Shown in pieces: positions 8,453 through 29,553 of a stretch of DNA of 32,000 bases. The translations under genes and the position numbers were made by a program. Source of the stretch: Candidatus Saccharimonadota bacterium. GTDB taxonomy: Bacteria > Patescibacteriota > Saccharimonadia > Saccharimonadales > Saccharimonadaceae. How positions within the stretch are numbered: the stretch's first letter is position 1; the number at the start of each line of letters is the position of its first letter. A model generated the notes under the pieces. That model was not told where the DNA came from, did not search any database, and saw only the letters and a list, made by a program, of their open reading frames with translations. The DNA is taken from positions 540,001 through 572,000 of the forward strand of contig JAIUPJ010000001.1 in assembly GCA_020160975.1 (NCBI GenBank). The letters run 5' to 3'.

Positions 8453-8522
8453 CGAGTGATTGTGTTCATAAATGGGCACCCACTCGACAAACAGTTCGGA
8501 CACAATCCCTACTGCTGGCTTA

Positions 8523-8548
8523 GACACCTAGAGCGGGTGTCCTTTTTT
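8523..8548 (+). terminator. intrinsic-terminator-like hairpin in the leader of the 8569 gene
   Basis: GACACC-TAGAGCG-GGTGTC followed by CTTTTTT. It lies about 20 nt upstream of the AAGGAGGG Shine-Dalgarno of the next gene. Confidence 0.4.
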
Positions 8549-8568
8549 ATTCCAGCAAAGGAGGGTAT

Positions 8569-9105: not shown

Positions 9106-9166
9106 TTATTAGAGAGTATTTGGCATATAATTAAAACAACATGTCAAACAAAGTTAAGAGCGTATT

Positions 9167-10465: not shown

Positions 10466-10470
10466 GGATT

Positions 10471-11184: not shown

Positions 11185-13805
11185 TGAATATAAAACTACA
11201 CAGTATTACGATTACTGACTTCAAGGGTATATCGGGTGAGCATGTTGTTGATCTTGAATCAGATATAACCTTCCTAAGTGGGCCAAATGGCTACGGTAAA
11301 ACAACTATTTACGATGCTATTGAACTATGTCTTACAGGCAAGATCTTGAGGATTGATGAAGCAAAAAGTGGAGAGAATGCAAGTAAAAGACATCAAAGGT
11401 CTATATTGCACAATGACCCAACAAAAGACATAAGAATCGAACTCGATGTTACATGCGAAGATGAAAGAAGAATTATTAAAGTTAAATGTGCGCGGGTTAT
11501 CGATAGGCAGCCGTTTATTGACTGGTCGGCTTTCCAGAGAAGTACTCATAGCATTGCAGGTGAACAGTTGGAAAGCGATGCTAAGTGGCCAAATTTATCA
11601 TCCGAAAACTATAAGTTATTTACTTATTTACAGCAGAGCGATAGCACCTTCTTTTTAAAGCTTGCGCAAAAGGCGAGGCATGACATCTTGACTCCACTGA
11701 TAGACGCCGGTGGTTATGAGGACGAGAGAAATAAGATTGAGCAGTTCAAGAAGAGGGTGGGTACATACAAAACTTATCTAAAATCTAAGCTTGATTCATT
11801 CGATACAACTCTAGACCAGCCATCGGGTGAGGCTATTGAATATGAGAAAATGATCAAAGCAGATGTTACGCAAGACTACGACAGCGCAAATCCTTTTGAT
11901 CGCTTAACAAGTGATCTTGCAAAAGTGAAACGGGCAGATCTAATACGAAAGCTTGATGAAATTGAAAGTTTTTTGAATAACTTCAGCCCAGACGATTACG
12001 TAAAAAGCGAACGGTATAAATTACTCACGAGATTTTCAAGAGACAAAGACTTCTTAAATTTCTTGGTTTTACGGAATGTAATGGATCAAGACAGTACGGT
12101 AAACACCTCTAGGGACAGAGTAAAGGTTCGTAATTTTACAAAAGATGTAACTATCCTAAGAAAATATATCTTGCGTAAAGAGTTAGCCTTAGATAGGTAT
12201 AACCAGCTTAAAGATGAGTCAGAAGTATTTTACTATCAGAATCGCGCTATTTTTATTGAAGACACAAAGCAGCGTCCAGTAGATGCAATATTGTCCTTCA
12301 TCGCTCAAGCAACCAATCAGTTTACGCCCGAAGAAAAACAAGACGCTACTAAGTATTTGGATGCATATAAGCCTATTGCGGAGTCTGTCGGCGTATATGG
12401 TAGACTCCTTTCGGAACTACAGCGGCTACGAAGCGAATTAATTGTGAACACCAAGACCCTTCATGATCATGACCATAATTTTGTAGAAGACAAATGTCCG
12501 TATTGCGGAGCTAAGTATACAACCCACCAGGAACTCATTGAATCAATTTCCAAGCAAACAGAAGAAGTCGAAAACCTAAAGGGTGAATCTGTTAAAAAAC
12601 TTTCGAGCTTAGAAAAGGAAATTAGAGATATTTTTGTTGCAGGTTTGATTAGTAACCTTTCTAAGTTTAAGCCTAGCGCACTTATATTTGAACAATTGAA
12701 ATCGACCGGTGCTCTAAGTAGGATAGACTTAGAACGTAATGAGTTAATAGATAAGGTGCTGCCCCAAGCAAGTAAAAGATTATCTCCAATTCAAGATTGG
12801 GAAACTAATATTCAGATTGTTGAATCAATAAGAAACTTGCAGCAATACATTGAAGAAAATACATCTCAAGGCGAGCTAGTCTTGGTTGATCTTCTAGATG
12901 AGCTTTATAGCAAAAACTACGATACCGAACTAGCTGTCTTATCTAGACTCAATTTTGAACTGAATGATGATCTTGTTGCGTCGTCTCAGCAAATGCCAAG
13001 TCTAGAGGATGTGATAGATAAGCAAGAGCGATTGAGTGAAATGCTAAGTCAAAAAGCGGCAACAATTGAATACAATCCCGGCTCAGTACTCGAGGAACAT
13101 GTTGCAATATATAAATCAATTTTCGACAGAAATAAGGAATATGTAGATTTCGCAAAGTCAAAAATTAAGGCAAAGCGGTTATATATAGATCAAGAGTATA
13201 GCAAGTCATTTGTAGAAAATAGAAAGCTTATAGAGTTAAAGCTTAAGCAAACAATTACACTTTCGTCTAAGGTTACTGGTCTTTTGGATATGTACAATGA
13301 GGCACTTAAAGAGTATCAGAAGAAAATCACTAAAGACCTGCAACTGCCTTTCTACTTGTACAGCTCAAAAATACTTCAAAATAGCCCACAATGTGATGGT
13401 ATATTTATGCACTCTCAAAAAGAAAGTAAGACCGTCGTGTTCACTACCGCTAGAGGCGAAACCTTAGATGCGGCTCATCAACTCAGCTCTGGGCAGCTTG
13501 TGGTGGTTTCTATGGCGTTCTATTTAGCGATGAACACAGTTTATCCGCAGAAGAGTACTAAACTTATGCTGATAGATGATCCAATTCAGGATCTAGATGT
13601 ACTAAACGTACATTCGCTTACCGAGCTTTTGAGGAGAAAGTTTATTGGTGAGTATCAGTTGATCATGTCTACGCATAATGAGTTAGATATAAACTATATG
13701 AGATACAAATTTAGTACTGCAATATCAAAAGATAGGATTAAGAATGTTAATGTGCAAGAACTATTCTTTGACACTGTTGCAAGTAATGATGAAAATGACT
13801 TATGA
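11184..13805 (+). CDS. Rad50/SMC-like ABC ATPase (LmuB-like) with central zinc hook
   Basis: 873 aa. Walker A GPNGYGKTT. CPYC at about residue 438, the midpoint of long coiled-coil-like sequence. ABC signature LSSGQ. Walker B LMLIDDP. H-loop STHN. Confidence 0.8.
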   Translation: MNIKLHSITITDFKGISGEHVVDLESDITFLSGPNGYGKTTIYDAIELCLTGKILRIDEAKSGENASKRHQRSILHNDPTKDIRIELDVTCEDERRIIKVKCARVIDRQPFIDWSAFQRSTHSIAGEQLESDAKWPNLSSENYKLFTYLQQSDSTFFLKLAQKARHDILTPLIDAGGYEDERNKIEQFKKRVGTYKTYLKSKLDSFDTTLDQPSGEAIEYEKMIKADVTQDYDSANPFDRLTSDLAKVKRADLIRKLDEIESFLNNFSPDDYVKSERYKLLTRFSRDKDFLNFLVLRNVMDQDSTVNTSRDRVKVRNFTKDVTILRKYILRKELALDRYNQLKDESEVFYYQNRAIFIEDTKQRPVDAILSFIAQATNQFTPEEKQDATKYLDAYKPIAESVGVYGRLLSELQRLRSELIVNTKTLHDHDHNFVEDKCPYCGAKYTTHQELIESISKQTEEVENLKGESVKKLSSLEKEIRDIFVAGLISNLSKFKPSALIFEQLKSTGALSRIDLERNELIDKVLPQASKRLSPIQDWETNIQIVESIRNLQQYIEENTSQGELVLVDLLDELYSKNYDTELAVLSRLNFELNDDLVASSQQMPSLEDVIDKQERLSEMLSQKAATIEYNPGSVLEEHVAIYKSIFDRNKEYVDFAKSKIKAKRLYIDQEYSKSFVENRKLIELKLKQTITLSSKVTGLLDMYNEALKEYQKKITKDLQLPFYLYSSKILQNSPQCDGIFMHSQKESKTVVFTTARGETLDAAHQLSSGQLVVVSMAFYLAMNTVYPQKSTKLMLIDDPIQDLDVLNVHSLTELLRRKFIGEYQLIMSTHNELDINYMRYKFSTAISKDRIKNVNVQELFFDTVASNDENDL

Positions 13806-14908: not shown

Positions 14909-16207
14909 TTAGCTTCTCTTCAAAAGCAAATTAAAATACTCCGTTCCCCCAAAAGGTATCTTTTGTTTCACATGTCGGGTTCCTTCTAGAGTATCTGCAG
15001 AATAAATTGTAAATGTTCCATAGAAATCGTTGATCTCATCAATAGCTTCTGTTAAGTAGCTTTCTTTTTCGTTCACGCCGAATAGATCAAGCTGGGATCG
15101 GTTAGATGGTTCAAGATTGTAAAGATACATACCCATCGTCCGTACGACCATATGCTCGGGACGTTTATCAAATATTTTCGATACCCGCTCCCAAATATCT
15201 TCATTTGTATAGCAGGGTACCTTGTACGTTTTTTTATCAACAAATCCTCCGCCTGAATTAAACGATAACCACACGCACACGCTTCGAGCTTCCATGTTAC
15301 GAAACCGTAGTTTCTTAGCGGTTGTTTCCGCCAGGAAATGAAGGCATGAACGGAGATACGTGTCATCATTTGTAGGGTTCTTTACTACCCATTGGCGACC
15401 AACCATTCCAAGTGACGTCTGGATATCATCAACTTCAAAACCTCTCAGCCGTTTATACCAATACGTGCCATTAACGCTCCTAAATATTTGCCGCTTAAGT
15501 ATACTTTCTTGTGCCGCTAAAAATTGCATCGGAGTAAATATATTATGAGCTCGCAGGCGTGAACCATAGCCGTCGGCGATACCATTTAAATCTTGCAGTT
15601 CTAGCGACTCGTACACCTTCACTATATTAGTATGGTCGATAACATCTAATCCATCCGGCTTGTGCAGTCCAGCGGCGGTCTTAGCTAAAAATCGGTTTGG
15701 TGCAATTCCGACATTGATTGTCATATAATCACCAATCTCTTTTTTTACGCGCTCTTTTATCTCATAGCCGATTTTGACTATTTCATCCGTTTTCCCTTCG
15801 AGTAGTGTTCCATGAAAGTCGAGAATACCTTCGTCGATACTCTTCATCTTCACGTGCGGGGTGTAGTCTTTCATGATTGCACATAGCTTTTCATATACGT
15901 GGTGGTATTTTGGTGGATCAGTTTCGAGCATGATAAATTCAGGGCATTTTGCCAAAGCTTCTGTGCGGCGACATCCGACTTTTATGCCTAGTTTTTTCGC
16001 CTCGTAGCTTGCCGCGATAACACAACACTCCTTACTGAGCCTATTTGTTACACCAATCGGCTTACCTCTCAGCGAAGGATGAGCTTGCTGCTCGGCAGTC
16101 GCAAATGCACTATTAAGATCTATCCACATGACACTTGGCTTTTCAGTATTTAGTCCAAACGGATTACTCATCGGAAATCTCCTGGTATCATGCATACGAG
16201 TGTCCAT
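14909..16207 (-). CDS. Y-family (UmuC-like) translesion DNA polymerase
   Basis: 432 aa. WIDLNSAFATAE (UmuC-type D-x-N-S-F). SYEAKKLGIK. SIDEGILDF. C-terminal UmuC-like tail LTEAIDEINDFYG. Confidence 0.85.
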   Translation of the reverse strand: MDTRMHDTRRFPMSNPFGLNTEKPSVMWIDLNSAFATAEQQAHPSLRGKPIGVTNRLSKECCVIAASYEAKKLGIKVGCRRTEALAKCPEFIMLETDPPKYHHVYEKLCAIMKDYTPHVKMKSIDEGILDFHGTLLEGKTDEIVKIGYEIKERVKKEIGDYMTINVGIAPNRFLAKTAAGLHKPDGLDVIDHTNIVKVYESLELQDLNGIADGYGSRLRAHNIFTPMQFLAAQESILKRQIFRSVNGTYWYKRLRGFEVDDIQTSLGMVGRQWVVKNPTNDDTYLRSCLHFLAETTAKKLRFRNMEARSVCVWLSFNSGGGFVDKKTYKVPCYTNEDIWERVSKIFDKRPEHMVVRTMGMYLYNLEPSNRSQLDLFGVNEKESYLTEAIDEINDFYGTFTIYSADTLEGTRHVKQKIPFGGTEYFNLLLKRS

Positions 16208-16443
16208 GTTAAATGCTCGGCGTCATATTCTAGACGATAATCATTGCATCCATCCGAGACATCAAAAACATGAATCATACGCTTTCCTTTTGCGGTGGGA
16301 TGACGCATACCTAACTGCGTAAATTGTATCTCCTGATCTTTCCAGCGCATTTTGTAGGGAACAGCAAGTGTACTAATATCACCGTGCTTTTTATAAAGCA
16401 CAACCATATCAACACGCTCATTTATCTCAATTGTCGGATCCAT
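16168..16443 (-). CDS. hypothetical small protein co-transcribed with the Y-family polymerase
   Basis: 91 aa. Overlaps the polymerase start by 40 nt. AGGA Shine-Dalgarno upstream. No S24 (UmuD) motifs and no YolD-like RGxIKW motif recognised. Confidence 0.5.
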   Translation of the reverse strand: MDPTIEINERVDMVVLYKKHGDISTLAVPYKMRWKDQEIQFTQLGMRHPTAKGKRMIHVFDVSDGCNDYRLEYDAEHLTWTLVCMIPGDFR

Positions 16444-16813: not shown

Positions 16814-17734
16814 ATGAGTTTATTCAAAATATCTAGCAATAACGCCTCTCGACTAAAACCAATCACAAACCTAGATGGTAAGAAGATTCTCGAACGTGAC
16901 GTACAGCGTATTTTCGAAGCGAGCCTTCACGAGCTACTTGGCGTTCACTTTTTAGCAAGCGAATACTCAACCAGTTTTGGCGGGCGTATGGACACGCTCG
17001 GTATCGACGATGAAGGCAATCCGTGCATTATCGAATACAAAAAGGGACACAACGAGAACGTAATCAATCAAGGCTTGTCGTATCTACGCTGGTTGCTTGA
17101 TCATAAAGATAGTTTTGAGAAGCTTTGCAATGAAAAGAACATTACAGTTGCTATTCAATGGGCGGCGCCACGAGTGATTTGTGTTGCCGAGAGCTATAAC
17201 AAGTTCGACACAGACACCGCCGACCTATTGCCAATTAACATTGAGCTATATCGGTACAAGCTATATGAAGATGGTTTACTGACGCTAGATACCGAAAACT
17301 ATCAGAAGGTGAAGTTACAAGACGCACCGAAGTTCACTGTTGATTCTGGCAAGGCTGAAAAGTTACAGGAGACGTTCACGCTTGAGTATCACTTAGCGAT
17401 GGCAAGTGAAGAGACGAAAGCGCTATTTGCATCACTGAAAGAGCGGATATTGGCTATTGATACGGAAATTATTGAAGATCCAAAGAAGATGTACGTTGCC
17501 TACAAAACGACACGCAACTTTGTCGATGTCGTCTTCAAGAAGTCAAAGTTAAAACTTTATATCAACATGAAGACCGGCACACTAGATGACCCGCGGGGAC
17601 TTGCTCGTGACGTTGAGTCACCCGTGCATATCGGCCACTGGGGTAATGGTGACTACGAAGTTGAAGTCACGGGTGGCACTGACCTCGATTATGTGATGGA
17701 TCTTATCCAGCAGAGTTACGACATCAATCAATAG
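16814..17734 (+). CDS. PD-(D/E)xK (NucS/EndoMS-like) nuclease domain protein with DUF5655-like C-terminus
   Basis: 306 aa. The D...E-x-K arrangement (RMDTLGIDDEGNPCIIEYKKG) sits in an N-terminal domain of the type often found next to type I R-M genes. The C-terminal domain assignment is by recollection of this architecture. Confidence 0.55.
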   Translation: MSLFKISSNNASRLKPITNLDGKKILERDVQRIFEASLHELLGVHFLASEYSTSFGGRMDTLGIDDEGNPCIIEYKKGHNENVINQGLSYLRWLLDHKDSFEKLCNEKNITVAIQWAAPRVICVAESYNKFDTDTADLLPINIELYRYKLYEDGLLTLDTENYQKVKLQDAPKFTVDSGKAEKLQETFTLEYHLAMASEETKALFASLKERILAIDTEIIEDPKKMYVAYKTTRNFVDVVFKKSKLKLYINMKTGTLDDPRGLARDVESPVHIGHWGNGDYEVEVTGGTDLDYVMDLIQQSYDINQ

Positions 17735-17738: not shown

Positions 17739-18455
17739 TTGTCTCAAGGCGCTTTTAGAAAAAAGCCGCAACGGCTAGAGCAAATAGTAAACAAGGTATA
17801 TACTGCACATATGAAGATGTCGGATCGTCGCAAAGACTTACGACCAAGGGAGAAGCTCCAGGCGCGAGGTGCTGAGGCTCTGAGTGACTACGAACTTTTG
17901 ATGGCGATAATTGGCAGCGGTACGCAGTACGCTGATGTGACTAAGCTTGCTCGCGAGGTGCAAAAATTACTGAAAGAAAAAGGCAGCGAGCTAGCTTACA
18001 AAGATTTACTCAGTGTCAAAAGTCTTGGCCCAGCAAAAGCAACAAATATTATGGCTGGCTTTGAGCTCTGGCGCAGACAGTTTGAAGTTAGCGAGCGCCC
18101 AATCATCGACAGTCTCGAAAAAGCCGTCGAGCAGTTGAGCGACATTCGTGACAAAAAGCAAGAATACTTCGTTTGCCTCACGCTCGACGGTGCCAATCGA
18201 CTGATTGCAAAACGCATCATCACTATCGGCACGCTCACTGCTAGCCTGGTCCACCCGCGCGAAGTCTTCGCAGAAGCCATTTCGGACCGCGCCGCCAGTA
18301 TCATCGTGGCGCATAATCATCCGAGCGGCACGTTAACGGCCAGTAGCGCCGATAGCGAAGTTACCCAAAGACTCGAAGAGGCTGGTGTGGTGCTAGGCAT
18401 AAAGCTCGTAGACCATTTGATTGTATCGTCGAGTGGGCATCTAAGTATCCTCTAA
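17739..18455 (+). CDS. radC: RadC-like JAB/MPN domain protein
   Basis: JAMM motif HNHPSG. N-terminal RPREKL...LSDYELLMAIIGSG is typical of RadC. The ORF track starts at TTG 17739. The ATG at 17811 (MKMSDRRKDLRPREKL) is the more likely start. Confidence 0.85.
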   Translation: MSQGAFRKKPQRLEQIVNKVYTAHMKMSDRRKDLRPREKLQARGAEALSDYELLMAIIGSGTQYADVTKLAREVQKLLKEKGSELAYKDLLSVKSLGPAKATNIMAGFELWRRQFEVSERPIIDSLEKAVEQLSDIRDKKQEYFVCLTLDGANRLIAKRIITIGTLTASLVHPREVFAEAISDRAASIIVAHNHPSGTLTASSADSEVTQRLEEAGVVLGIKLVDHLIVSSSGHLSIL

Positions 18456-18476: not shown

Positions 18477-19082
18477 ATGAGAGAGCGTCCGAATAACTAT
18501 GCTTTTATCGATAGCCAAAATCTAAACCTTTCGATTCGTGAACTAGGGTGGAAATTAGACTTTACAAGATTTCGTGTGTATTTGCGTGATAAATACGCTG
18601 TTAATAAGGCATACCTATTCATAGGCTTCATGCCACAGAACGCTGACCTGTATGCTCATCTACAAGAAGCTGGTTTTATATGTATATTTCGACCCACATT
18701 AACGTATCGTGATGGCACAACAAAAGGCAACTGCGATGCAGAGTTGGTGCTTCAGGCTATGATCGAGTTTGAAAACTACGACCAAGCAGTGCTTGTTAGT
18801 GGCGATGGCGACTTTCAGTGTCTAGCAAAGTATTTACACGAACAGGATAAGCTAGCAGCACTACTCATACCGAATCAAGGAAAATTCTCGGCCTTACTGA
18901 AGTTTGACTTCTTGAAACCATACCATAGGTTTGTTAGCGACCTTCAAGCAAAGCTAGAATACAAGCCAATAAAAAAGAAGAACCCCCGCAAGGACAAGCA
19001 CTTGAAGGGGAAATCTTCTATTGGTGATACTTCAAATATAGCAAAAAAGAGCCAAAAAGTCAACCGAAAAAGGGTTGCGTAA
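18477..19082 (+). CDS. NYN (LabA/DUF88-like, PIN-related) ribonuclease domain protein
   Basis: 201 aa. YAFIDSQNL, GNCDAELVLQAM and VLVSGDGDFQCL match the NYN acidic motif set. Lys-rich basic C-terminal tail. Confidence 0.75.
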   Translation: MRERPNNYAFIDSQNLNLSIRELGWKLDFTRFRVYLRDKYAVNKAYLFIGFMPQNADLYAHLQEAGFICIFRPTLTYRDGTTKGNCDAELVLQAMIEFENYDQAVLVSGDGDFQCLAKYLHEQDKLAALLIPNQGKFSALLKFDFLKPYHRFVSDLQAKLEYKPIKKKNPRKDKHLKGKSSIGDTSNIAKKSQKVNRKRVA

Positions 19083-19103: not shown

Positions 19104-20564
19104 GTGGCAGATATACGAACCGAATTTAAAAGAATCGACAACATCCTTTTTGAAGATGCCGGGACTAATGGCGCCAATGATTACATGGCGCAGATGTCGT
19201 GGATTTTGTTCCTCAAGTATCTAGACGACCTAGAAGACACGCGTAAATCCGAAGCCGTGTTCCACGGCCAGACATACGAACCGCTATTCAAGGAAGAGTT
19301 TCAGTGGGACACCTGGGCGGCGCCAAAGCTCACAAGCGGCAAGCCGGATATTTCGACACAAATGACCGGCGACGATCTCATCGAGTTCGTTAATCAAAAG
19401 CTATTCCCGTACCTCAAATCATTCAAAAGCACCGAAAACGACCCGAAGTCGCTTGTCTACAAAATCGGTGAAATCTTCGGAGAAGTCACCAACAAAATTA
19501 ACAGCGGCCGCAACTTGCGCGAGGTTATCGATATCATTGACGCCTTGCAGTTCCAGACCCAAGACGAGCTAGATCAGCTATCGGCACTGTACGAAGACAG
19601 ACTCAAGCTGATGGGCGGCGCGGGGCGCAGCGGCGAATACTACACCCCAAGACCGCTCATCCAGGCGCTTGTGCAGGCAGTCGACCCAGAGCTCGGCAAG
19701 ACGATATACGACGGTGCGGCAGGTTCAGCAGGATTTTTGACCGAAGCGTATGCGTATCTGCGTAGCAAAGTTGAAACATCGAGCGAACTAAAGTTCCTCA
19801 AAGAAGATACGTTCTACGGCAAAAATAAAAAGCCAGAGCCGTATCTGCTCGGTACGATGAACATGATCCTGCACGGCATCGAGTCGCCAAACATGACTCA
19901 CGCTAATACGCTGAACGAAGACACCCGTGCTATTCAAGAAAAAGATCGCTACGATTATATACTGGCCAATCCGCCGTTTGGCGGCAATGAACGGCCAGAA
20001 GTACAACGCAACTTCAAGGTGCAAACGCGCGAGACGGCCAACCTATTCTTGCAGCACTTTATGAAAAAGCTTCGTACTGGTGGTGAAGCGGCGATCGTCA
20101 TCAAAAACACCTTCCTGACCAACGAACCGACCGGCGCGACAGGCAAGATCCGCAAAGAACTGCTCGAAGGCTACAGCCTGCACACCGTCCTCGACTTGCC
20201 AGGCGGCGTGTTCAGTGCAACTGGATCAACTGGTGTCAAGACGGTAGTGCTTTTCTTTCGCAAAGGCGAGCCGACGCGCGAGATATGGTACTACCAGCTA
20301 AACCCAGGGCGAAACCTCGGCAAAACCAATCCACTCAACATCAACGACTTTAGTGATTTCCTTGCCAAATACAAAACCCGCGAAACAAGCGAACAGTCAT
20401 GGACAGTCAAAGTCGAAAACATCGACCAAACCACCCTCGACCTCGGTGTCAAAAACCCACATGAGCCAGAAGCCGAGGAGTTGAAAACACCAGAGGACAT
20501 TTTGGAGGATATCAAGATGGTAGACCGAGAAATTGCTGAGATTCTGGAGAACATCAAACTATGA
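19104..20564 (+). CDS. hsdM: type I restriction-modification N6-adenine methyltransferase subunit
   Basis: 486 aa with a GTG start after an AGAGG Shine-Dalgarno. HsdM_N-like N-terminus. AdoMet motif DGAAGSAGFL. Catalytic NPPFGG. Confidence 0.9.
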   Translation: MADIRTEFKRIDNILFEDAGTNGANDYMAQMSWILFLKYLDDLEDTRKSEAVFHGQTYEPLFKEEFQWDTWAAPKLTSGKPDISTQMTGDDLIEFVNQKLFPYLKSFKSTENDPKSLVYKIGEIFGEVTNKINSGRNLREVIDIIDALQFQTQDELDQLSALYEDRLKLMGGAGRSGEYYTPRPLIQALVQAVDPELGKTIYDGAAGSAGFLTEAYAYLRSKVETSSELKFLKEDTFYGKNKKPEPYLLGTMNMILHGIESPNMTHANTLNEDTRAIQEKDRYDYILANPPFGGNERPEVQRNFKVQTRETANLFLQHFMKKLRTGGEAAIVIKNTFLTNEPTGATGKIRKELLEGYSLHTVLDLPGGVFSATGSTGVKTVVLFFRKGEPTREIWYYQLNPGRNLGKTNPLNINDFSDFLAKYKTRETSEQSWTVKVENIDQTTLDLGVKNPHEPEAEELKTPEDILEDIKMVDREIAEILENIKL

Positions 20565-22552
20565 ATCAAGGTTCAAAAATTTACCTAGAGAAATATCTTG
20601 AGGATTTTGGTAAGAAATCCACCGTTTATACAGCAATCGTCGAAGCTGTAACAAATGCGATTGAAGCTATCGAGCAAAAAGAGAACAGCTCCGATGGTGA
20701 GATTCATATTCACATTGATCGTGATAATGTACTTCTTGATGAAACTTCGGCAAAGATAAATAAAATAACCATTAGCGATAACGGTGTTGGCTTCGTTGAC
20801 GCAAACCGAAATTCATTTAATACCCTTTACAGTCAGCAAAAGAGCGAAAGTGGCGGTAAGGGTCTTGGACGAATGTTCTTCGCTAAATATTTCAAAAATG
20901 TGTCAGTGGAAAGCACCTACATCAAAGATAACAAATACCGTACCAGAAAGTTCGCTTTAGGACGAAAATATGAAATTATCGAAGATGAGCAGGACACGCA
21001 AGCTGACGGCACAATCCCAACAGGGGCAAAACTGGTTTTGAGTGAATACGCAGGAAACGTTGATTTTGATGATGATATTGATCGATTTGCGCACCGTGTA
21101 CTAGAGAAAATCTTGAATTACTTTGTGGTAGAAAAATATACTTGTCCAAAAATTATAATCCACGACGGCACAGAAACAAGAGTTCTAAATGACCTGATAG
21201 GTGATACTGACTCATTTGCAATTCAGTCAAAGAATACCGGCGAGATTGCGGTAGGAGAGAAGACACTCAGCTATAAAATGTTTGAGCTACAAAGTGTCTT
21301 TACTCAGAAAAGTAAAATTATGCTCACTGCAAATCATAAGGTTGTTACAGACGCAAAATTAGAAGATTACGTGCCGGAATTTGCAACAGACTTCACCAAA
21401 CAGGACGAGGAAGGCAAAGAGCGTAAGTACATTGTTCGGCTATATGTTTACGGTAACTACCTAGACGAAGCCGTCAATAACGAGCGGAGTGATTTCAATT
21501 TTGGTGATCACGAGGATTTGGTATATCCGATAGGCAAGAAAGACATTGAAGAAAGTGCAGCGAAAGAGGCAAAAAAGATACTAAAGACTGAGGTAACCAC
21601 TCGCTTTACTGAGAAGAAAAAACGAGTCGAAGAATACGCCGAAGACAATATCTGGTACAAAAATTATCTCGAACATGTTGATTTTGAAAAAATGAAAATG
21701 AGTCCATCAAACACGGATATTGAAGCCGAACTTCACAAAGTAAAGTTTGAACAAGACGCTCAGCGCAAAGCAAAAGTTGCCAATCTGGCAAATAACCTTG
21801 ACGTTAAAGGCGTAAATGTTCAAGAGGAGGTTGAAAAGCTTGTATCGGAGATGAATGATACCGACAGGAGTAACCTTGCCCAGTATATGGCATTTCGTCA
21901 GGTTGTTTTGAATTTATTTGAAAAGGCGCTAGAGTGGGATAATAACGAGAAGTTCGAAAAAGAAAAGACCTTACACAGTATTATATTTCCGGTCAATCAC
22001 AATTCCGATGACACGACCTATGATGAACATAATTTGTGGATTTTAGACGAAAAGCTTAACTTTACAAGCTGGATTAGCTCAGACAAAAGCACATTTACTG
22101 AGTCAGCAGATCGTCCAGATATCGCAGCATTTCATTACCCAGTCTCATATCGAGAGGGTGAAGAAGTGCATAGTCCAGTTAGTATATTTGAGTTCAAAAA
22201 ACCAAGCAGGACAGATTTCATCAACAAATCATCCGACGAAGATCCCATAGAGCAGATTGTACGCTACGTTAATCAGCTACGCGATGGCAAGCTCAAACAG
22301 CCAAATGGACGTGAGATTGATACTGCAGAGAATACACCATTTTACGGCTACGTTATAGCTAGCGCAAACAATGATGTCAAGAAGTGGCTCACTGACGTAA
22401 AAGATATGAAGATGACACCAGATGGCAGTGGTTGGTTTAAGAATATGGACAACATAAACCTTCGAGTAGAGTTTATTACCTGGGATAAATTACTTAAAGA
22501 TGCCAAGATTAGGCACAGGATTTTCTTCGAGAAGCTAGGGGCTCAAAAGTGA
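20561..22552 (+). CDS. GHKL (Bergerat-fold, MORC/paraMORC-like) ATPase fused to a C-terminal PD-(D/E)xK-like nuclease module
   Basis: 663 aa. N-box VEAVTNAIEA (E28, N32). G1 ISDNGVGF (D73). G2 GGKGLG. C-terminal RPD(520)IAAF...SIFE(544)FK(546)KP followed by IEQIVRY. ATGA overlap with hsdM. Confidence 0.65.
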   Translation: MNQGSKIYLEKYLEDFGKKSTVYTAIVEAVTNAIEAIEQKENSSDGEIHIHIDRDNVLLDETSAKINKITISDNGVGFVDANRNSFNTLYSQQKSESGGKGLGRMFFAKYFKNVSVESTYIKDNKYRTRKFALGRKYEIIEDEQDTQADGTIPTGAKLVLSEYAGNVDFDDDIDRFAHRVLEKILNYFVVEKYTCPKIIIHDGTETRVLNDLIGDTDSFAIQSKNTGEIAVGEKTLSYKMFELQSVFTQKSKIMLTANHKVVTDAKLEDYVPEFATDFTKQDEEGKERKYIVRLYVYGNYLDEAVNNERSDFNFGDHEDLVYPIGKKDIEESAAKEAKKILKTEVTTRFTEKKKRVEEYAEDNIWYKNYLEHVDFEKMKMSPSNTDIEAELHKVKFEQDAQRKAKVANLANNLDVKGVNVQEEVEKLVSEMNDTDRSNLAQYMAFRQVVLNLFEKALEWDNNEKFEKEKTLHSIIFPVNHNSDDTTYDEHNLWILDEKLNFTSWISSDKSTFTESADRPDIAAFHYPVSYREGEEVHSPVSIFEFKKPSRTDFINKSSDEDPIEQIVRYVNQLRDGKLKQPNGREIDTAENTPFYGYVIASANNDVKKWLTDVKDMKMTPDGSGWFKNMDNINLRVEFITWDKLLKDAKIRHRIFFEKLGAQK

Positions 22553-22932
22553 GCATGCTAAAAAGACTACTCTTCGAGATCGCAAAGCCTCAGTTAATAA
22601 GAGCGCTTGACTATGCTTCTATGTATAAGAGTCAATGGGCCGACGGCGGCGTTCCTGTCGAGGCATTCGAAAAGCAATTTGATAAGGATTTTCTGCAAGA
22701 GTTAGTCGAGAAAAAATATTTCACTATCGATGATGAGCCTATAGGCATAGACGACTATACTAGAAAGGTTTATAGCCTTACGCCCAGGGCCAGAACAATA
22801 GCTAAAAAGCCAAAAGGTTCGCATGAAACCAGCTCAGATATATACAAGCAGCTATTCTGGTGGCTCATGGGTATTGTGGGTGCGATTGTAGCTGGATTGG
22901 TGCTGGCAAATGTATTCGGAGTTGGAAAATGA
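22549..22932 (+). CDS. small tail-anchored membrane protein
   Basis: 127 aa (GTG at 22549 or ATG at 22555). Soluble N-domain and a single C-terminal TM helix LFWWLMGIVGAIVAGLVLANVF. 4-nt overlaps with both neighbours. Confidence 0.5.
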   Translation: MSMLKRLLFEIAKPQLIRALDYASMYKSQWADGGVPVEAFEKQFDKDFLQELVEKKYFTIDDEPIGIDDYTRKVYSLTPRARTIAKKPKGSHETSSDIYKQLFWWLMGIVGAIVAGLVLANVFGVGK

Positions 22933-24050
22933 AAAGTGTAAAACTTGGTGAATATATTAAAGTTCTGAGTCCAAAAACAAAGATTCAAGCTAAGAAGTTT
23001 TTGGCATCTGGAAGGCATCCTATTGTTTCGCAAGAAGCAAGTTATATTAATGGATATTGGGATAATTCAGATGATGTGATGATACTACGCAAGCCAGTGG
23101 TAATCTTTGGTGATCACACAAGAGCTATCAAATATATTGACTTCGATTTTGTTGCCGGAGCCGATGGTACAAAGATATTAGTTACTCCTGACGATCTAGA
23201 CGCTAGGTACTTCTATCATTGGCTATTAGCGCATCCCGTCGAGCACCTAGGTTATGCTAGGCATTTCCGTTTATTGAAAGATATGGTGATAGATATACCG
23301 TCTCTGGACGAACAGCGGCGGATTGTTGCGCGGTTGGATGCGGCTTTTGAGAAGATCTCGGCGGCGGAAGTTTTGACGCGTCAGAATTTAGATAATGTGT
23401 CTTCATTGCAAAAGAGTATTTTACAAAAGTATCTGAGTGCCTCTGGTAACACGCACAGATTGGGGGACATATGTGCAATTCTGGGTGGCAAGCGCCTACC
23501 GAAAGGAGAGAAGCTGTTAAGTACACCGACACCCCATCCATATGTTCGCGTAACTGATTTTGACGGCAAAGGTGGAGTGGACACGAACGACATTAGATAT
23601 ATCTCAGATAGTGTTTATGAAAAAATATCGCGCTACATCATTAACACAAAGGATGTGTTCTTGAGTATTGCAGGAACGATTGGCGTGACAGGTATTGTCC
23701 CTGAGATGCTAGATGGAGCTAATTTAACTGAAAATGCCTGTCGGCTAGTGCCGTCAGATGCAATTAATACGCGCTATCTTTATTATTTCACTACTTCTGA
23801 AATATTCCGTGTGCAGGCTTTAGCCGAGACAAAACAAACAGCTCAACCAAAATTAGCGCTAATGAGAATTAAGGATATTCAAATCGATTTACCAAGCATT
23901 GAAGAGCAAGAATCCATTGTCATGAAACTTGATAATCATCTTGGAAAAACTCAAAGGGCTGAAGCTCAGTACCAAAAGAAGCTCGCGAAACTCACTGACC
24001 TACGCCAATCCCTGCTAGCCGAAGCATTTTCGACAACAAATACGGTATAA
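22929..24050 (+). CDS. hsdS: type I restriction-modification specificity subunit
   Basis: The MKSVKLGEYI start at the ATGA overlap is preferred over the longer 22860 ORF. Two target-recognition halves are separated by conserved helical regions (LDEQRRIVARLDAAFEKI and IEEQESIVMKLDNHLGK). Confidence 0.85.
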   Translation: MKSVKLGEYIKVLSPKTKIQAKKFLASGRHPIVSQEASYINGYWDNSDDVMILRKPVVIFGDHTRAIKYIDFDFVAGADGTKILVTPDDLDARYFYHWLLAHPVEHLGYARHFRLLKDMVIDIPSLDEQRRIVARLDAAFEKISAAEVLTRQNLDNVSSLQKSILQKYLSASGNTHRLGDICAILGGKRLPKGEKLLSTPTPHPYVRVTDFDGKGGVDTNDIRYISDSVYEKISRYIINTKDVFLSIAGTIGVTGIVPEMLDGANLTENACRLVPSDAINTRYLYYFTTSEIFRVQALAETKQTAQPKLALMRIKDIQIDLPSIEEQESIVMKLDNHLGKTQRAEAQYQKKLAKLTDLRQSLLAEAFSTTNTV

Positions 24051-24052: not shown

Positions 24053-26437
24053 ATGAGTAGTATGAACGAAGCCACAACACGCCGAGAACTGATCGATCCT
24101 AAGCTAAAGGACTGTCAGTGGGGGCGAAACGAGACCGTTGGGTCGGAAGTAGTGGCGGAATATGGATTTACTGATGGTCGCTTGATAGGCGCAGGGCAGC
24201 GTGGCAAGCAAAAGAAGGCCGACTATGTACTAGCGTACAAAAACCAAAAGCTCGCCATCGTTGAAGCAAAAGCAGAAGGCAAAGAGATCACCGATGGCCT
24301 CGAGCAGGTCAAAGATTACGCCGAGGTGCTAAATATTCGATTTGTATACAGTACGAACGGCCATGGTATCTACTTTTTTGATATGAAGACTGGCCGTGGT
24401 GAGATGGTAGATAAATACCATTCACCAGATGATCTGTTTGTTATGACGTTTGATGACGTGAATCACAAACAATACGAGGCATTGGTTGAGCCGTATCAAA
24501 TAACCAAACATCGACCGCGTTACTACCAAGAGAACGCCATTAACGCGGCGGTTCGAGCGATTTCTGGCGGTGAAGATAGGGTGCTGCTGACGCTTGCAAC
24601 CGGCACAGGCAAGACAACGATTGCGTTTCAGATCGCCTGGAAGCTGTTTCAAGCGCGTTGGAACAGGCGAGGCGACGACCGACGACCGCGAATACTCTTT
24701 ATTGCCGACCGCAATATATTGATTGAACAAGCCATGGGCGACTTTGAGCCGCTCGAGAGCGAGATCGTGCGCGTCAATGGCGACGCAATTCGCAAAAAAG
24801 GCAGTATCCCGACCAACGGCAATATTTTCTTTAGTATTTACCAAGCTATCGCTGGTGCACCTCGTGACCAGCCAGACAAGCCGTACTTCATGGATTATCC
24901 AGTAGATTTCTTTGACCTGGTTATTATCGACGGATGCCACCGTGGTGGCGCTGGCAACGAAAGTAGCTGGCGCACCGTGCTCGATCATTTTTCTGGGGCG
25001 ACGCACCTCGGCCTTACCGCCACGCCAAAGCGTGATATGAACGTTGATACCTATGATTACTTTGGCGAACCAAAATACACGTATTCGCTCAAACAGGGTA
25101 TCGAAGATGGATTTCTGACGCCTTTTAAGGTAAAGCGCGTTACGACCACCATGGATCGATACGTGTTTAACCCGAGCGACTATGTCGAAAGTGGCGAAGT
25201 AGACGAGTCTCGTGAGTATTCACTAACGGATTTCAACCGTGCTATTTACTTACCTGAGCGCGAAGAGCGACTGGTGCAGATCATGTTTGAGCAGATCGAC
25301 CCTAACCAAAAGACGATAGTTTTTTGTAACGATGAAAAGCATGCCGCTATGGTGCGTGACTACATTAATAAACACAAACCCGAAGGAACGCTTGGAGATC
25401 ATCGAAACTACTGCGTGCGCGTAACAGCCACCGAAGGCAAAATCGGCGACGAGCACCTCGAGGATTTCCGCGACAACGAAAAGCAAGTGCCGACTATCGT
25501 GACGACAAGCCGGAAACTCTCGACCGGCGTGGATGCCCGAAACGTGCGATTTATTGTACTAATGCGAAATGTTGGTAGCATGGTTGAGTTTAAGCAGATT
25601 GTCGGCCGCGGTACGCGGCTATATGACAACAAAGATTACTTTACTATCGTAGACTTTTACGGCAACGACGCGAAGTTCGAAGATCCTGCGTGGGACGGTG
25701 AGCCGGCAGACCTAGAAATAGCAAATGTAGAAGTCGAAAATAAGCCAACGACGATAACTTATCCATTGCCAGGTGATGATGATACATCGCAAGTCAATGA
25801 CCCCGGAGCCAAACCGGGTGATATAACCAACTGCCCACCCGAGCCTCCTGCTCAAAAAACCGTTGTACGCTTAGCCGACGGCAAAGAACTTGAGATCAAA
25901 TACACCGTCGATACTAAATTTTACATGGATGGCAAGCCGGTATCACCGCAAGAATTTCTAGAGAAATTGTTCGGGCAGATTCCTGATTTATTCACGGACG
26001 AAGATGATTTACGTCGCCAATGGTCGGATCCGCGAACTCGCGAAGCGCTATTGCAAGGCTTAGCCGAACGTGGGTTTGAAGAAGAAAAACTACAGGCTCT
26101 CAAACAGCTGATCGACGCCAAAGACAGCGACGTGTATGATGTATTGCGATATATTGCTTATGCAGAAGAAACAATGACACGAGGTGAGCGCGCTGGATTA
26201 GTACGTGAATACTACCTAGAGCAGCTAGACGATAACGAACGTGAATTTGTGACCTTTGTGCTCGACACTTACGAACGAGAAGGCGAGAATGAGTTGAGCC
26301 TACAAAAACTCAAAAGCCTAGTGAATCTAAAATATCACACCATGCGTGATGCATCAGAAAAATTGGGAGAGCCAAGCGAGATCGTGCGAGACTATCTAGA
26401 ACTCCAGCAAGAGCTATACGCCGGAACAGTAGGATAG
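24053..26437 (+). CDS. hsdR: type I restriction enzyme R subunit (EcoEI_R_C-type C-terminus), Walker B reads DGCH
   Basis: 794 aa. N-terminal nuclease D...E-x-K (ADYVLAYKNQKLAIVEAKAEGK). Helicase motif I ATGTGKT. Motif II IIDGCHRG. Motif III LTATP. Motif VI QIVGRGTR. C-terminal YDVLRYIAY region. Confidence 0.9.
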   Translation: MSSMNEATTRRELIDPKLKDCQWGRNETVGSEVVAEYGFTDGRLIGAGQRGKQKKADYVLAYKNQKLAIVEAKAEGKEITDGLEQVKDYAEVLNIRFVYSTNGHGIYFFDMKTGRGEMVDKYHSPDDLFVMTFDDVNHKQYEALVEPYQITKHRPRYYQENAINAAVRAISGGEDRVLLTLATGTGKTTIAFQIAWKLFQARWNRRGDDRRPRILFIADRNILIEQAMGDFEPLESEIVRVNGDAIRKKGSIPTNGNIFFSIYQAIAGAPRDQPDKPYFMDYPVDFFDLVIIDGCHRGGAGNESSWRTVLDHFSGATHLGLTATPKRDMNVDTYDYFGEPKYTYSLKQGIEDGFLTPFKVKRVTTTMDRYVFNPSDYVESGEVDESREYSLTDFNRAIYLPEREERLVQIMFEQIDPNQKTIVFCNDEKHAAMVRDYINKHKPEGTLGDHRNYCVRVTATEGKIGDEHLEDFRDNEKQVPTIVTTSRKLSTGVDARNVRFIVLMRNVGSMVEFKQIVGRGTRLYDNKDYFTIVDFYGNDAKFEDPAWDGEPADLEIANVEVENKPTTITYPLPGDDDTSQVNDPGAKPGDITNCPPEPPAQKTVVRLADGKELEIKYTVDTKFYMDGKPVSPQEFLEKLFGQIPDLFTDEDDLRRQWSDPRTREALLQGLAERGFEEEKLQALKQLIDAKDSDVYDVLRYIAYAEETMTRGERAGLVREYYLEQLDDNEREFVTFVLDTYEREGENELSLQKLKSLVNLKYHTMRDASEKLGEPSEIVRDYLELQQELYAGTVG

Positions 26438-26882: not shown

Positions 26883-27671
26883 ATGACTTTTACGACAAAA
26901 ATCAAGCAATTACGTTACGATGCAAACCTCAGCCAGCAGGACGTGGCTGACGCTATTGGTGTTGCTCGTGCAACCTATGCAAGTCTTGAGGCGGATCGGC
27001 GACCCCCAAACCTTGATGAGATTAATAACCTGGCAAGGTATTACGAGGTATCACCAACAGAGTTGATATCGAGCCATGCAAGCATAGCGAATGAGCCGGC
27101 AGTAGAGTATAAACGCGCGCCCCAAAATGAGCCGGACATTGAGCCGCGTAATATTGATCCGCAAGTGAGCCCAGAAAAGCTACGCGAGGTATTGCTGTAT
27201 GTACTAAACAAAGTTGGCGCAAAGCCAAATGTGGGCGAAACAGTTCTGTATAAACTGCTTTATTTCATCGATATGGATTACTACGAAAAACACGGTACAT
27301 CTATCACTGGTTTAACGTATATCCATAATACCTACGGTCCGAGCCCGGTAAAAGATTTTCGTGCCGTAGTGGACGATATGCGGGCGCATGATGAGCTAGA
27401 TATCATTGAAACGAAATTCTTTAATAACAAACAGAAGAAGTATCTTCCGCAAACCACACCAAAGCTAGAAAGCTTAACAGCAAGTGAGATTAAGCATATC
27501 GACGAAGAGCTGGCGCGGCTGGGTGATAAAAACGCATCTGAGCTAAGCGACCTATCGCATAAAGACATGCCATGGATCGCTACACCAGATAAAAAACCGA
27601 TCGACTATCAACTAGTTATGTACCGCACTGCCGCTACGACCGTACGCGAGGATGATGGTGTTGAACTTTGA
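26883..27671 (+). CDS. XRE-HTH + Panacea (DUF4065/SocA-like) domain antitoxin candidate
   Basis: 262 aa. N-terminal HTH_3 (IKQLRYDANLSQQDVADAIGVARATYASLE). C-terminal DUF4065 pattern (LREVLLYVLNKVG...VLYKLLYFIDMDYYEKHGTSITGLTYIHNTYGPSP). Confidence 0.75.
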   Translation: MTFTTKIKQLRYDANLSQQDVADAIGVARATYASLEADRRPPNLDEINNLARYYEVSPTELISSHASIANEPAVEYKRAPQNEPDIEPRNIDPQVSPEKLREVLLYVLNKVGAKPNVGETVLYKLLYFIDMDYYEKHGTSITGLTYIHNTYGPSPVKDFRAVVDDMRAHDELDIIETKFFNNKQKKYLPQTTPKLESLTASEIKHIDEELARLGDKNASELSDLSHKDMPWIATPDKKPIDYQLVMYRTAATTVREDDGVEL

Positions 27672-28032
27672 TGAAACACCAGAATTCCAAAGGGATATAA
27701 AAGCTCTCGCAAAAAGGTGGCGCTCAATCCCTAGCGACCTTGAGAGAGCAAAACTCGCCATAACGCCGCTTTATGTGCCAGTCAAAGAGGTCGACATCGC
27801 AGAATTACGCAACGCCTTTTTTAGTACGAACCGTGCAACAATTTTAAGAGGTGGAGACGGTTACGAAGTGGTGAAAATGCGCTTTGACTGCGCGTCGCTG
27901 GGAAACGATAAACGAACACGACTTGTGTTTATTGCTCTAGTTGAGAATAGCACCATACGATTTATTGAGTTATACGCTAAAAGTGGGAAAGAACGAGAAG
28001 ATATTAAGAGAATTAACAAATATATTCCATAG
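27652..28032 (+). CDS. putative RelE/ParE-superfamily-like toxin partnered with the Panacea antitoxin
   Basis: 126 aa. Overlaps the antitoxin by 20 nt. The layout FQRDIKAL...VVKMRF...RLVFIALVENSTIRFIELY resembles RelE/HigB-type toxins. By eye only. Confidence 0.45.
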   Translation: MMVLNFDETPEFQRDIKALAKRWRSIPSDLERAKLAITPLYVPVKEVDIAELRNAFFSTNRATILRGGDGYEVVKMRFDCASLGNDKRTRLVFIALVENSTIRFIELYAKSGKEREDIKRINKYIP

Positions 28033-28203: not shown

Positions 28204-29553
28204 ATGATCTCTAAATCCGACTACATGCTCTTCCTCCGCCAGCCAGCCTGGCTTTGGCTGAAAAAGAATGACCCGAGCAAACTTCCACCAGTCGATGCTG
28301 CAACGCAAGCAATGTTCGACGCTGGCCATGCCTTTGAGCCGTATGTTGAATCATTGTTTCCAGAAGGGGTAACGCTTGGCTTTAGTGATTTCGATGAATA
28401 CCGCTCGCTACCGCTGCGAACCCAGCAAGCTCTTGAATCTGGTGCCCAAGTTGTATTCCAGCCTCGGTTTGAATGGAATGGGTTTACGTGCATATCAGAC
28501 ATCGTTTCAGTCGCAGAGCATAAGACGATTGACCTATATGAGATTAAATCCAGCACACGCGTTAAGCCCGATCACCTATATGATCTTGCTTTCCAAAAAA
28601 CCGTGCTTGAAGGCAATGGATTTACGGTTCGAAACGTATCAGTGATTCATGTAAATAATCAGTATGTTCGTATGGGCGACGTTAATCCAAAAGAGCTAAC
28701 AACGTTTGCCGACGTGACTGATGATGTGAATGAAATTGCTTTAAAAACTCCAGAGTATATGGAGTTAGCGAAGAAGATTGCTGCTCAAGCAGAAATGCCA
28801 GATCCAAATCCAGAACTGGCGAAGCTTGCTTCAAAATCTGAATGGATAAAGGTTTATGACAATATCTTTCCGCCCGAACCTAAGGTGTGGCCAGAAGCTA
28901 CTCGAGCCGAAATCAACAAGCAAGAGATCGAATGCTTTTTGGCTGAACTACAATATCCGCTCTACTTTTTTGACTATGAAACGATGCGGGGGCTTGTACC
29001 GTATTTTGACGGTCAGCGGCCGTACCAGCAAGTACCGTTTCAATATTCTCTGCATATCATCCATGAGCCAGGCAGAGAAGTAGAGCATAGAGAATATCTC
29101 CATAAAGAAAACACTAATCCAGCTCCAGCTTTAGCTAAGCAATTAGTAGAAGACATGGGCGATGCTGGTTCGATCATCACCTGGAATATGCGCTTTGAAA
29201 AATCGGTAAACGAAGAGTTGGGGCGGATGTACCCAGAATATGCCGAGCAGATTAAAGCTATCAACGAACGTGTCGTCGACCTCATGATCCCATTTAAGTC
29301 AAAATGGTATGACGATCCGCGCTGCGAGGGAAGCGCGAGCATCAAAAAGGTGTTGCCAGTGGTGTGCCCTGATCTAAGTTACAAAGACCTTGGTATTCAA
29401 GACGGCAACTCGGCTCAGCGACTTTGGATGCAAGCGGTGCTCGATGAAACGCGAGCGAACCAGAAAGATCAGATACTCGCAGACCTAAGTGAATATTGCA
29501 AGATGGACACCTGGGCGATGGTTGAGATATACAAGAAACTAAAGGAGTTATAA
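28204..29553 (+). CDS. DUF2779-like protein (N-terminal PD-(D/E)xK + C-terminal exonuclease-like module)
   Basis: 449 aa. ISDIVSV...DLYEIKSS (D...E-x-K). YFFDYET...QVPFQYSLH is typical of DUF2779. Confidence 0.6.
   Translation: MISKSDYMLFLRQPAWLWLKKNDPSKLPPVDAATQAMFDAGHAFEPYVESLFPEGVTLGFSDFDEYRSLPLRTQQALESGAQVVFQPRFEWNGFTCISDIVSVAEHKTIDLYEIKSSTRVKPDHLYDLAFQKTVLEGNGFTVRNVSVIHVNNQYVRMGDVNPKELTTFADVTDDVNEIALKTPEYMELAKKIAAQAEMPDPNPELAKLASKSEWIKVYDNIFPPEPKVWPEATRAEINKQEIECFLAELQYPLYFFDYETMRGLVPYFDGQRPYQQVPFQYSLHIIHEPGREVEHREYLHKENTNPAPALAKQLVEDMGDAGSIITWNMRFEKSVNEELGRMYPEYAEQIKAINERVVDLMIPFKSKWYDDPRCEGSASIKKVLPVVCPDLSYKDLGIQDGNSAQRLWMQAVLDETRANQKDQILADLSEYCKMDTWAMVEIYKKLKEL

Follow-up and report, generated by a model that had tools for sequence, protein, structure and literature searches.

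What are two extra genes doing between the modification and specificity genes of a type I restriction-modification (R-M) operon? The question is raised by a 32,000-nucleotide stretch of a Candidatus Saccharimonadota genome (assembly GCA_020160975.1, contig JAIUPJ010000001.1, positions 540,001 to 572,000 of the forward strand; hereafter the window, in whose own numbering the coordinates of this locus are given), where a 663-aa gene (gene 1) and a 127-aa gene (gene 2) separate hsdM from hsdS. An initial annotation had regarded the two as an uncharacterised defence system and had asked whether they map to a named one. Gene 1 does: it belongs with VcSduA, the type I-D Shedu or paraMORC3 enzyme. 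The explanation that we favour, and consider probable, is that the locus is a defence island in which the hsdM|hsdS hotspot holds two unrelated passengers, gene 1 being a self-contained VcSduA-family enzyme and gene 2 not its subunit. An apparently new two-gene system would then become a divergent member of a validated single-gene defence family in a hotspot of a known kind, which saves follow-up effort, and the remaining novelty would lie in the orphan gene 2 and in the series of passengers found at this Saccharibacteria hotspot.

The five genes of the operon are arranged head to tail and co-oriented on the plus strand, as read from the list of open reading frames (ORFs). The first, hsdM (19104-20564), encodes a type I DNA methyltransferase subunit of the EcoAI/type IB family (Pfam N6_Mtase, 1.4e-56, and HsdM_N; PADLOC MTase_I, 2e-150). 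It is followed by gene 1 (20561-22552), a VcSduA-family GHKL ATPase-nuclease identified through its homologs, BLASTP and an AlphaFold2 (AF2) model, and by gene 2 (22549-22932), whose product combines an N-terminal soluble domain (~95 aa) with one membrane helix at the C-terminus (nucleotides 22852-22908). The specificity gene hsdS (22929-24050, with its ATG at 22929) has two target-recognition domain halves (Pfam Methylase_S, 2e-26; PADLOC Specificity_I, 4e-52), and hsdR (24053-26437) encodes a restriction subunit of the EcoAI/FtnUII family (NCBIfam restrict_EcoAI, 1.3e-243; Pfam ResIII and EcoEI_R_C). By Pfam, PADLOC and NCBIfam, hsdM, hsdS and hsdR constitute a complete, intact type I R-M system of the EcoAI (type IB) family in one operon. 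The initial annotation had placed the two extra genes between hsdM and hsdS by way of three 4-nt overlaps, and the raw sequence confirms every coordinate: ATGA at 20561-20564 (hsdM/gene 1), GTGA at 22549-22552 (gene 1/gene 2) and ATGA at 22929-22932 (gene 2/hsdS). Gene 2 has an alternative start, an ATG at 22555, six bases downstream.

In gene 1, a GHKL ATPase and a PD-(D/E)xK nuclease are joined in one protein. Residues 19-104 match Pfam HATPase_c at 8e-8, above the gathering score, and the full set of Bergerat motifs that had been read from the sequence is present and conserved across 31 homologs. In the alignment of these homologs, with identities as low as 24%, E28 and N32 are nearly invariant, and D73, G75, G77, K94, G101, G103, R104, E468, D520, E544 and K546 are invariant; the homolog consensus also keeps the TG motif, so that Bergerat ATP-binding motifs I-IV (ExxxN, DxGxG, the glycine-rich lid and TG) are all accounted for. 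The AF2 model (mean predicted local distance difference test score, pLDDT, 85) consists of an alpha/beta N-terminal domain, a beta-rich second domain extending to about residue 300, long helices between residues 326 and 458, and a C-terminal alpha/beta domain. The protein can be divided into a GHKL (Bergerat) ATPase with a beta-rich transducer/middle domain (residues 1-320; 20561-21520), delimited by HATPase_c, the motifs and Foldseek; a long helical region (residues 321-459; 21521-21937) with helices at 326-340, 342-362, 384-412 and 418-458, as had been predicted; and a C-terminal PD-(D/E)xK nuclease domain (residues 460-663; 21938-22549) with an invariant E468-D520-E544-x-K546 motif.

Comparison of the gene 1 model with the PDB by Foldseek retrieved Hsp90/TRAP1, Topo VI-B and GyrB 43K at E values of 4e-11 to 1e-9 over 400-450 columns, the aligned part being the GHKL domain plus transducer, as in the Hsp90/GyrB/Topo VI-B class. 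The nuclease domain, modelled separately (pLDDT 80.7), gave its best Foldseek matches to the PD-(D/E)xK nuclease McrC (9.5e-3) and then to FokI, MspJI and Mus81; all are weak, and together with the invariant residues they uphold the nuclease motif noted at the outset. Among the C-terminal domains of 78 family members, 45 weakly match Pfam HSDR_N (best 2.6e-4) and 35 match PDDEXK_9. PDB sequence searches with the gene 1 profile and the nuclease-domain profile returned nothing beyond weak histidine-kinase matches, PHROGs gave no meaningful match for gene 1 or gene 2, and no PADLOC model, the HEC and PDC models included, matched either gene at E values up to 0.1.

On sequence grounds, gene 1 belongs to the VcSduA/paraMORC3 family as a divergent member. 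VcSduA of V. cholerae, a GHKL domain joined to a PD-(D/E)xK nuclease, is a single-gene anti-phage system classed as type I-D Shedu and formerly called paraMORC3; it protects when expressed alone in E. coli, its protection persists at all multiplicities of infection tested, and the substitutions E27A and K557A each abolish defence (Adams et al., 2025; PMC12137116). Three links lead from gene 1 to this protein. In BLASTP, gene 1 and the first 399 aa of the V. cholerae C6706 GPY04_RS00505 sequence share 27.9% identity across 384 aa (117 bits, E 3e-32). An end-to-end alignment of gene 1 (668 columns, E 5e-74) is obtained with a V. fluvialis plasmid homolog, itself 61-63% identical to VcSduA. An Erythrobacter sp. 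THAF29 protein, hit #191 of the VcSduA model of Adams et al., is 97% identical to P0034, a member of the gene 1 alignment that is 38% identical to gene 1 (E 1e-136). E28 and K546 of gene 1 are aligned with E27 and K556 of the V. fluvialis homolog, and E27 lies within the same FEAV motif in the V. furnissii copy, which has a full N-terminus, and in the V. cholerae sequence. The predicted counterparts of the VcSduA loss-of-function sites E27 and K557 are conserved in gene 1 as E28 and K546.

VcSduA and gene 1 have the same architecture (N-terminal GHKL ATPase, middle/clamp region and C-terminal PD-(D/E)xK nuclease) and similar lengths, and both are situated beside restriction systems in a defence island, VcSduA in VSP-II of the WASA lineage. 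They differ in that gene 1 comes from Saccharibacteria, not Vibrio, and occupies the hsdM|hsdS slot, its start and stop codons overlapping those of its neighbours, whereas VcSduA lies beside the type IV system GrwAB. Iyer, Abhiman and Aravind (2008; PMC2292703), whose relevance the initial annotation had recognised, described paraMORC3 as a GHKL domain, an S5 domain and a C-terminal restriction-endonuclease-fold domain with E-D-ExK motifs, occurring in R-M neighbourhoods or standalone and sporadically across phyla. Judged by features rather than by accession, gene 1 shows every defining trait of this group (intact GHKL motifs, an S5/transducer-type domain and an E-D-ExK nuclease fold), and its family is likewise sporadic across phyla and either R-M-linked or standalone. 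Whereas Iyer et al. (2008; PMC2292703) reported prevalence in Proteobacteria and Bacteroidetes, gene 1 represents a Saccharibacteria clade, of the Candidate Phyla Radiation (CPR), in a type I operon, and it extends the VcSduA/paraMORC3 family into CPR bacteria with very small genomes. Homologs of gene 1 form 50 clusters (P0001-P0050) in the protein collection; repeating the search with the 31-sequence profile added nothing to this set, and no Vibrio protein was among the matches. The family comprises at least 568 confirmed loci among species-representative genomes of many phyla and is found in 55 plasmid records.

The relation between the two extra genes is revealed by the hsdM|hsdS slot in orthologous operons. 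Across Saccharibacteria contigs the R-M backbone is orthologous (hsdM 74-85% and hsdR 62-82% identical), and hsdS is hypervariable between the orthologous loci (28-42% identity). The order hsdM - gene 1 - gene 2 - hsdS of the window recurs in L092-L094, and the partial contig L091 contains only gene 1 - gene 2 - hsdS; the pair is confined to these near-identical strains. Gene 1 is present in the order hsdM - gene 1 - hsdS in L086 (70% identical) and L090 (83%), and it is accompanied by a different gene in L085 (86%; hsdM - gene 1 - AriA-like ATPase - hsdS - 539-aa gene - hsdR). Conversely, L084 has the order hsdM - gene 2 - hsdS - hsdR, and L082 has hsdM, a 114-aa ORF, an M78/helix-turn-helix (HTH) gene resembling PD-Lambda-2_B, a PDC-M36A-like DUF8370/71 gene, gene 2, hsdS and hsdR. 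In L081, which has neither hsdS nor hsdR, a 3' remnant of hsdM is followed by a 262-aa gene, the DUF8370/71 gene and gene 2. Conservation of the pair across homologs, suggested earlier as a check, breaks down in L081, L082, L084, L085, L086 and L090, and a gene 2 homolog was found at none of 80 gene 1 family loci from other genomes.

Because orthologous operons carry gene 1 and gene 2 separately or with other passengers, the slot between hsdM and hsdS is a hotspot in which defence passengers are interchanged, a known pattern, and the varying slot content agrees with the original description of both genes as passengers inside a type I R-M operon. Defence genes are embedded in a type I R-M operon in the case of TgvAB of V. 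cholerae VPI-2 (PMC11411939), and type I R-M operons have been surveyed for such genes by 'guilt-by-embedding' (Payne et al., 2024; 10.1101/2024.01.29.577857). The present genes resemble these embedded genes and PrrC in being independent genes between hsd genes, presumably co-transcribed with them, with slot content that varies in related strains. TgvAB is a GmrSD-like type IV enzyme that needs both genes, whereas the two passengers here are separable. The orthologous type IB operons, with at least five passenger combinations in the hsdM|hsdS slot, form a series that can be mined by guilt-by-embedding. In the side branch of this series represented by L081 (5484-8384) and L082 (3506-8384), the DUF8370/DUF8371 protein encoded before gene 2 has 486 aa and a weak PADLOC similarity to PDC-M36A (1.9e-8). 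Gene calling left out the hsdM of L082 (80% identical), which may be disrupted.

It had also been proposed that the passengers and hsdS were swapped in as one central cassette. This idea is weakened, and we reject it, because strains that are 98-100% identical to the window in hsdM, gene 1 and gene 2 differ from it in hsdS (63% identical in L092, 99% in L093 and 69% in L094); passengers and hsdS do not move as one block. The pattern indicates that target-recognition domains are, as far as these alignments tell, exchanged rapidly and independently of the passengers.

In the favoured explanation, gene 1 would act as a self-contained single-polypeptide defence enzyme that has no need of gene 2, an autonomy presumed to extend to its Saccharibacteria host. 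As suggested by the VcSduA mutants and modelling of Adams et al. (2025), its GHKL and transducer module would dimerise on ATP binding, probably forming an ATP-driven dimeric clamp, and this clamp may gate or position the C-terminal PD-(D/E)xK domain, which would cut invading DNA. By analogy with VcSduA, gene 1 would need both active sites and would target phage directly rather than through abortive infection; it would most likely add a second, sequence-independent restriction layer beside the type I enzyme. Gene 2, a rare, lineage-restricted, small membrane-anchored protein that stands 5' of hsdS whatever lies upstream, would most likely be an operon accessory or an independent mini-passenger, and may act as a small membrane effector of its own.

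Several results weigh against this explanation. Gene 1 is only ~28% identical to VcSduA, over the first 399 residues of the latter, and the equivalence with K557 leans on the V. fluvialis proxy because the direct comparison is limited to those residues. GHKL-bearing forms are classed as type I-D Shedu by Gu et al. and by Adams et al. (2025; PMC12137116), and on this side the signals are missing: Pfam SduA_C (PF14082) matched none of the 78 family C-terminal domains at E values up to 10, the Shedu models of PADLOC were without a match at gene 1 (E up to 0.1), hhalign of the nuclease domain against a genuine V. fluvialis Shedu gave a probability of 0.24% with only the ExK strand aligned, and no Shedu chain was among the top 50 Foldseek matches of the nuclease domain. 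Finally, the co-oriented upstream neighbours found at 37 of 73 family loci are mostly R-M or other defence genes, often with 4-nt overlaps, and a functional dependence of gene 1 on the neighbouring R-M enzyme is conceivable.

The Vibrio relatives help to place gene 1 with respect to canonical Shedu. The V. fluvialis VcSduA-like protein also has no SduA_C match, and the gene next to it matches SduA_C at 1.3e-25 and PDB 8TI8 at 5e-34; the V. furnissii VcSduA relative bears the RefSeq name 'DUF4263 domain-containing protein'. Canonical Shedu (SduA; DUF4263/SduA_C; PDB 8TI8, 8PS4) is comparable with gene 1 in being a defence nuclease of the PD-(D/E)xK fold under the control of an N-terminal domain. 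However, the nuclease domain of the gene 1 family does not match SduA_C by HMMER, hhalign or Foldseek; canonical Shedu is a homotetramer, whereas a tetramer model of VcSduA is poorly supported in Adams et al. (2025; PMC12137116); and the V. fluvialis plasmid carries a genuine Shedu and a VcSduA-like gene side by side as separate genes. We file gene 1 under VcSduA/paraMORC3, its nuclease domain not reaching the Shedu signature in these comparisons; a deeper kinship with Shedu may exist. The silence of PADLOC at gene 1 is probably due to the same mismatch, and VcSduA-family loci will likely escape other tools that rely on this signature. On the V. fluvialis plasmid (pIDH5335-1, NZ_AP028130.1; L088 1-7968), a type IB operon of the order hsdR - AAA ATPase - hsdM - hsdS is followed by the genuine Shedu gene and then by the VcSduA homolog; the latter two overlap by 4 nt and are possibly co-translated.

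Gene 2 is a real gene that is under purifying selection, the ratio of nonsynonymous to synonymous substitution rates (dN/dS) being 0.08-0.10 against homologs at 74-80% identity. Its description as a soluble domain ending in one transmembrane helix holds: the protein has one strongly hydrophobic stretch, at the C-terminal residues 102-120 (Kyte-Doolittle 19-residue mean maximum 2.31), and this helix is almost invariant across homologs (FWWLMGI.G..(I/V)AG...A..FGVGK). No match was obtained for gene 2 in Pfam, NCBIfam, PADLOC, PHROGs or the PDB, the last also searched with a gene 2 profile. A profile search of 1.84 billion representative proteins found only 6 representatives of the family, the named closer homologs being from Candidatus Saccharibacteria, and this tiny distribution limits the general importance of gene 2. 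In every gene 2 locus that has hsdS, gene 2 is situated immediately 5' of it with a 4-nt overlap. The similarity of a longer, 278-aa protein, P0063, to gene 2 is confined to the C-terminal membrane helix and the residues directly preceding it (FWWLMGIIGAVIAGLILAFLFGVGK); the conserved tail may accordingly be a portable module placed on different soluble domains.

The alternative that survives best makes gene 2 not a defence gene itself but an accessory of this lineage of R-M operons, for instance one that tethers the Hsd complex to the membrane or regulates it, with other passengers inserting between hsdM and gene 2. We hold this to be possible, at clearly less than even chances. The minimal arrangement of L084, in which gene 2 is the sole occupant of the slot, and the fixed position before hsdS are what such a role would predict, and the N-terminal domain looks by eye as though it might be winged-helix-like. 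The locus L081 can be read in two ways: the hsdM remnant kept upstream of gene 2 implies descent from the same operon, but the persistence of gene 2 beside the DUF8370/71 gene after the loss of hsdS and hsdR fits a passenger-tied or stand-alone role. The absence of gene 2 from the orthologous operons L085, L086 and L090, and the lack of any domain or structural match in the searches of Pfam, NCBIfam, PADLOC, PHROGs and the PDB, also speak against an R-M accessory.

An accessory role has to be weighed for gene 1 as well, and here the wider neighbourhoods of its family are informative. A co-oriented gene lies within 200 nt upstream in 37 of the 73 non-redundant family loci, and the commonest domains encoded by the upstream neighbours are N6_Mtase (10), DEAD (10), MUG113/T5orf172 (9 and 8), Eco57I (7), ResIII (5), Methylase_S (4) and RhuM (3). 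Family neighbours include type III Mod and Res genes, a type ISP enzyme, Eco57I-like type IIG enzymes, MmeI-type genes, superfamily 2 (SF2) helicases and a PDC-S06 ATPase, and another Saccharibacteria type I family shows the order RadC - hsdM - RhuM - GHKL - hsdS. Many copies are solitary or lie beside mobile-element genes. The varied neighbours and the solitary copies fit an autonomous module that travels through defence islands, in agreement with Iyer et al. (2008).

We regard it as unlikely that gene 1 is an accessory of the type I enzyme, which would process DNA ends or loops made by HsdR or serve as a PrrC-like backup when anti-restriction proteins block R-M. Five types of R-M gene recur directly beside family members, frequently overlapping them by 4 nt, which speaks for such a role, as do the gene order hsdR-AAA-hsdM-hsdS-Shedu-GHKL on the V. 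fluvialis plasmid, the AriA-like (PARIS-type) ATPase next to gene 1 in the slot of L085 and the DNA-looping proposal made for paraMORCs by Iyer et al. (2008; PMC2292703). However, VcSduA alone protects in E. coli, about half of the family loci are without an adjacent co-oriented gene and others adjoin non-R-M genes, and the Saccharibacteria copy in L087 stands alone among glycosyltransferase genes. This copy (8001-9881), 66% identical to gene 1 and 626 aa long, is without the N-terminal motif I region and may be decaying.

A recurrent module was observed in L034, L044, L049, L055, L056, L072, L077 and L080 upstream of the family match at ~8001, with overlapping junctions. It contains an MmeI-type enzyme (~920 aa), sometimes a ~290-aa gene, an SF2 helicase (~690 aa, with a PMBR repeat), a T5orf172/MUG113 protein (~405 aa) and the GHKL-nuclease. 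Its hosts are mostly named Alphaproteobacteria, L049 being annotated only as Proteobacteria. The module looks like a multi-gene R-M-type system with a VcSduA-family protein as a fixed component.

A further explanation, to which we give little credence, is that gene 2 represents a new, Saccharibacteria-restricted class of small membrane-anchored adaptors serving whichever defence protein is encoded just upstream, be it the GHKL-nuclease, the PDC-M36A-like DUF8370/71 protein or the type I methylase/specificity complex. If so, gene 2 would tether its partner at the membrane where DNA enters, or would be a shared membrane effector, and a mechanism common to interchangeable partners would then account for the conserved helix and for the constant location just before hsdS.

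Very improbable, in our judgement, is a dedicated two-component system in which a GHKL-nuclease sensor/effector and a tail-anchored membrane partner are co-translated with the R-M subunits, which comes close to the pairing put forward in the initial annotation. The adjacency of the two genes with a 4-nt overlap and the retention of the pair in the near-identical strains L091-L094 speak for it, and the unusual conservation of the membrane helix suggests that gene 2 does more than anchor. Against this, gene 2 is already absent or replaced where gene 1 is still 83-86% identical (L090, L085), gene 1 is absent or replaced where gene 2 is 60-80% identical (L084, L082, L081), no gene 2 homolog accompanies the 80 family loci across phyla, and the 6 representatives of the gene 2 family compare with at least 568 gene 1 loci. 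The two genes occur independently, and VcSduA works as a single gene. The weakest alternative, a sensor histidine kinase, is suggested by one homolog named 'Sensor histidine kinase' in UniRef and by histidine kinase ATP-binding domains as the best PDB sequence matches (E 0.006), and it is rejected on architecture and fold with next to no probability left to it: the ORF list and Pfam reveal neither a HisKA/DHp domain nor a response-regulator partner, the whole-model fold falls with the transducer-bearing Hsp90/Topo VI-B/GyrB class, and the protein carries a C-terminal nuclease domain with the invariant E-D-ExK motif.

Two further features of the operon, its base composition and its junctions, had been taken as signs of a special arrangement. 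The guanine-cytosine (GC) content is 0.504 in hsdM, 0.395 in gene 1, 0.435 in gene 2, 0.415 in hsdS and 0.485 in hsdR, against 0.439 for the whole window. The proposed switch at the hsdM stop and back at the hsdR start is real as a GC dip, but as evidence of a swapped-in cassette it is weakened: the dip alone cannot date a transfer event, because orthologous loci show the same dip over the middle genes and GC within the window spans 0.34 to 0.55. Similarly, the proposed translational coupling to the R-M subunits is plausible across these junctions, but it is not unusual, since short gene overlaps are common elsewhere in the window. When 16.4-27.0 kb was scanned for promoters and terminators, the counts did not clearly exceed those of shuffled controls (23 vs 17.0 ± 3.4; 15 vs 10.5 ± 3.0) and no convincing internal terminator was found; the scan is neutral on a single transcription unit, neither for nor against.

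Other parts of the window contain further candidate defence genes and mobile-element features. Beyond a tRNA-Asn gene (5520-5594), GC falls from ~0.51 to ~0.41 and the minus strand encodes a large serine recombinase (5850-7028; Resolvase, Recombinase and Zn_ribbon_recom); everything downstream of them, the R-M operon included, may be on an integrated element. A serine recombinase is also found just upstream of hsdM in L084. An ABC-3C system of three genes (9167-13805) is composed of a CTD1-domain protein (9167-10465), MComp1 (10471-11184) and an 873-aa ABC/SMC-like ATPase (11184-13805). Further along, a Y-family (ImpB/MucB) polymerase is encoded on the minus strand (14909-16207), and a small ORF upstream of it (16168-16443) overlaps it. 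Next come the candidate defence protein PDC-S18 (DUF5655; 16814-17734; PADLOC, 7e-95), RadC (17739-18455) and an NYN-domain protein (18477-19082) immediately before hsdM. RadC is also located upstream of hsdM in L082, L085, L086 and L006-L008. Beyond hsdR, an HTH and Panacea (SocA-like) antitoxin gene (26883-27671) overlaps a 126-aa ORF (27652-28032), with which it likely forms a toxin-antitoxin pair, and genes for a DUF2779/RNase H-like protein (28204-29553) and a DUF2726 protein (30380-30904) lie further downstream.

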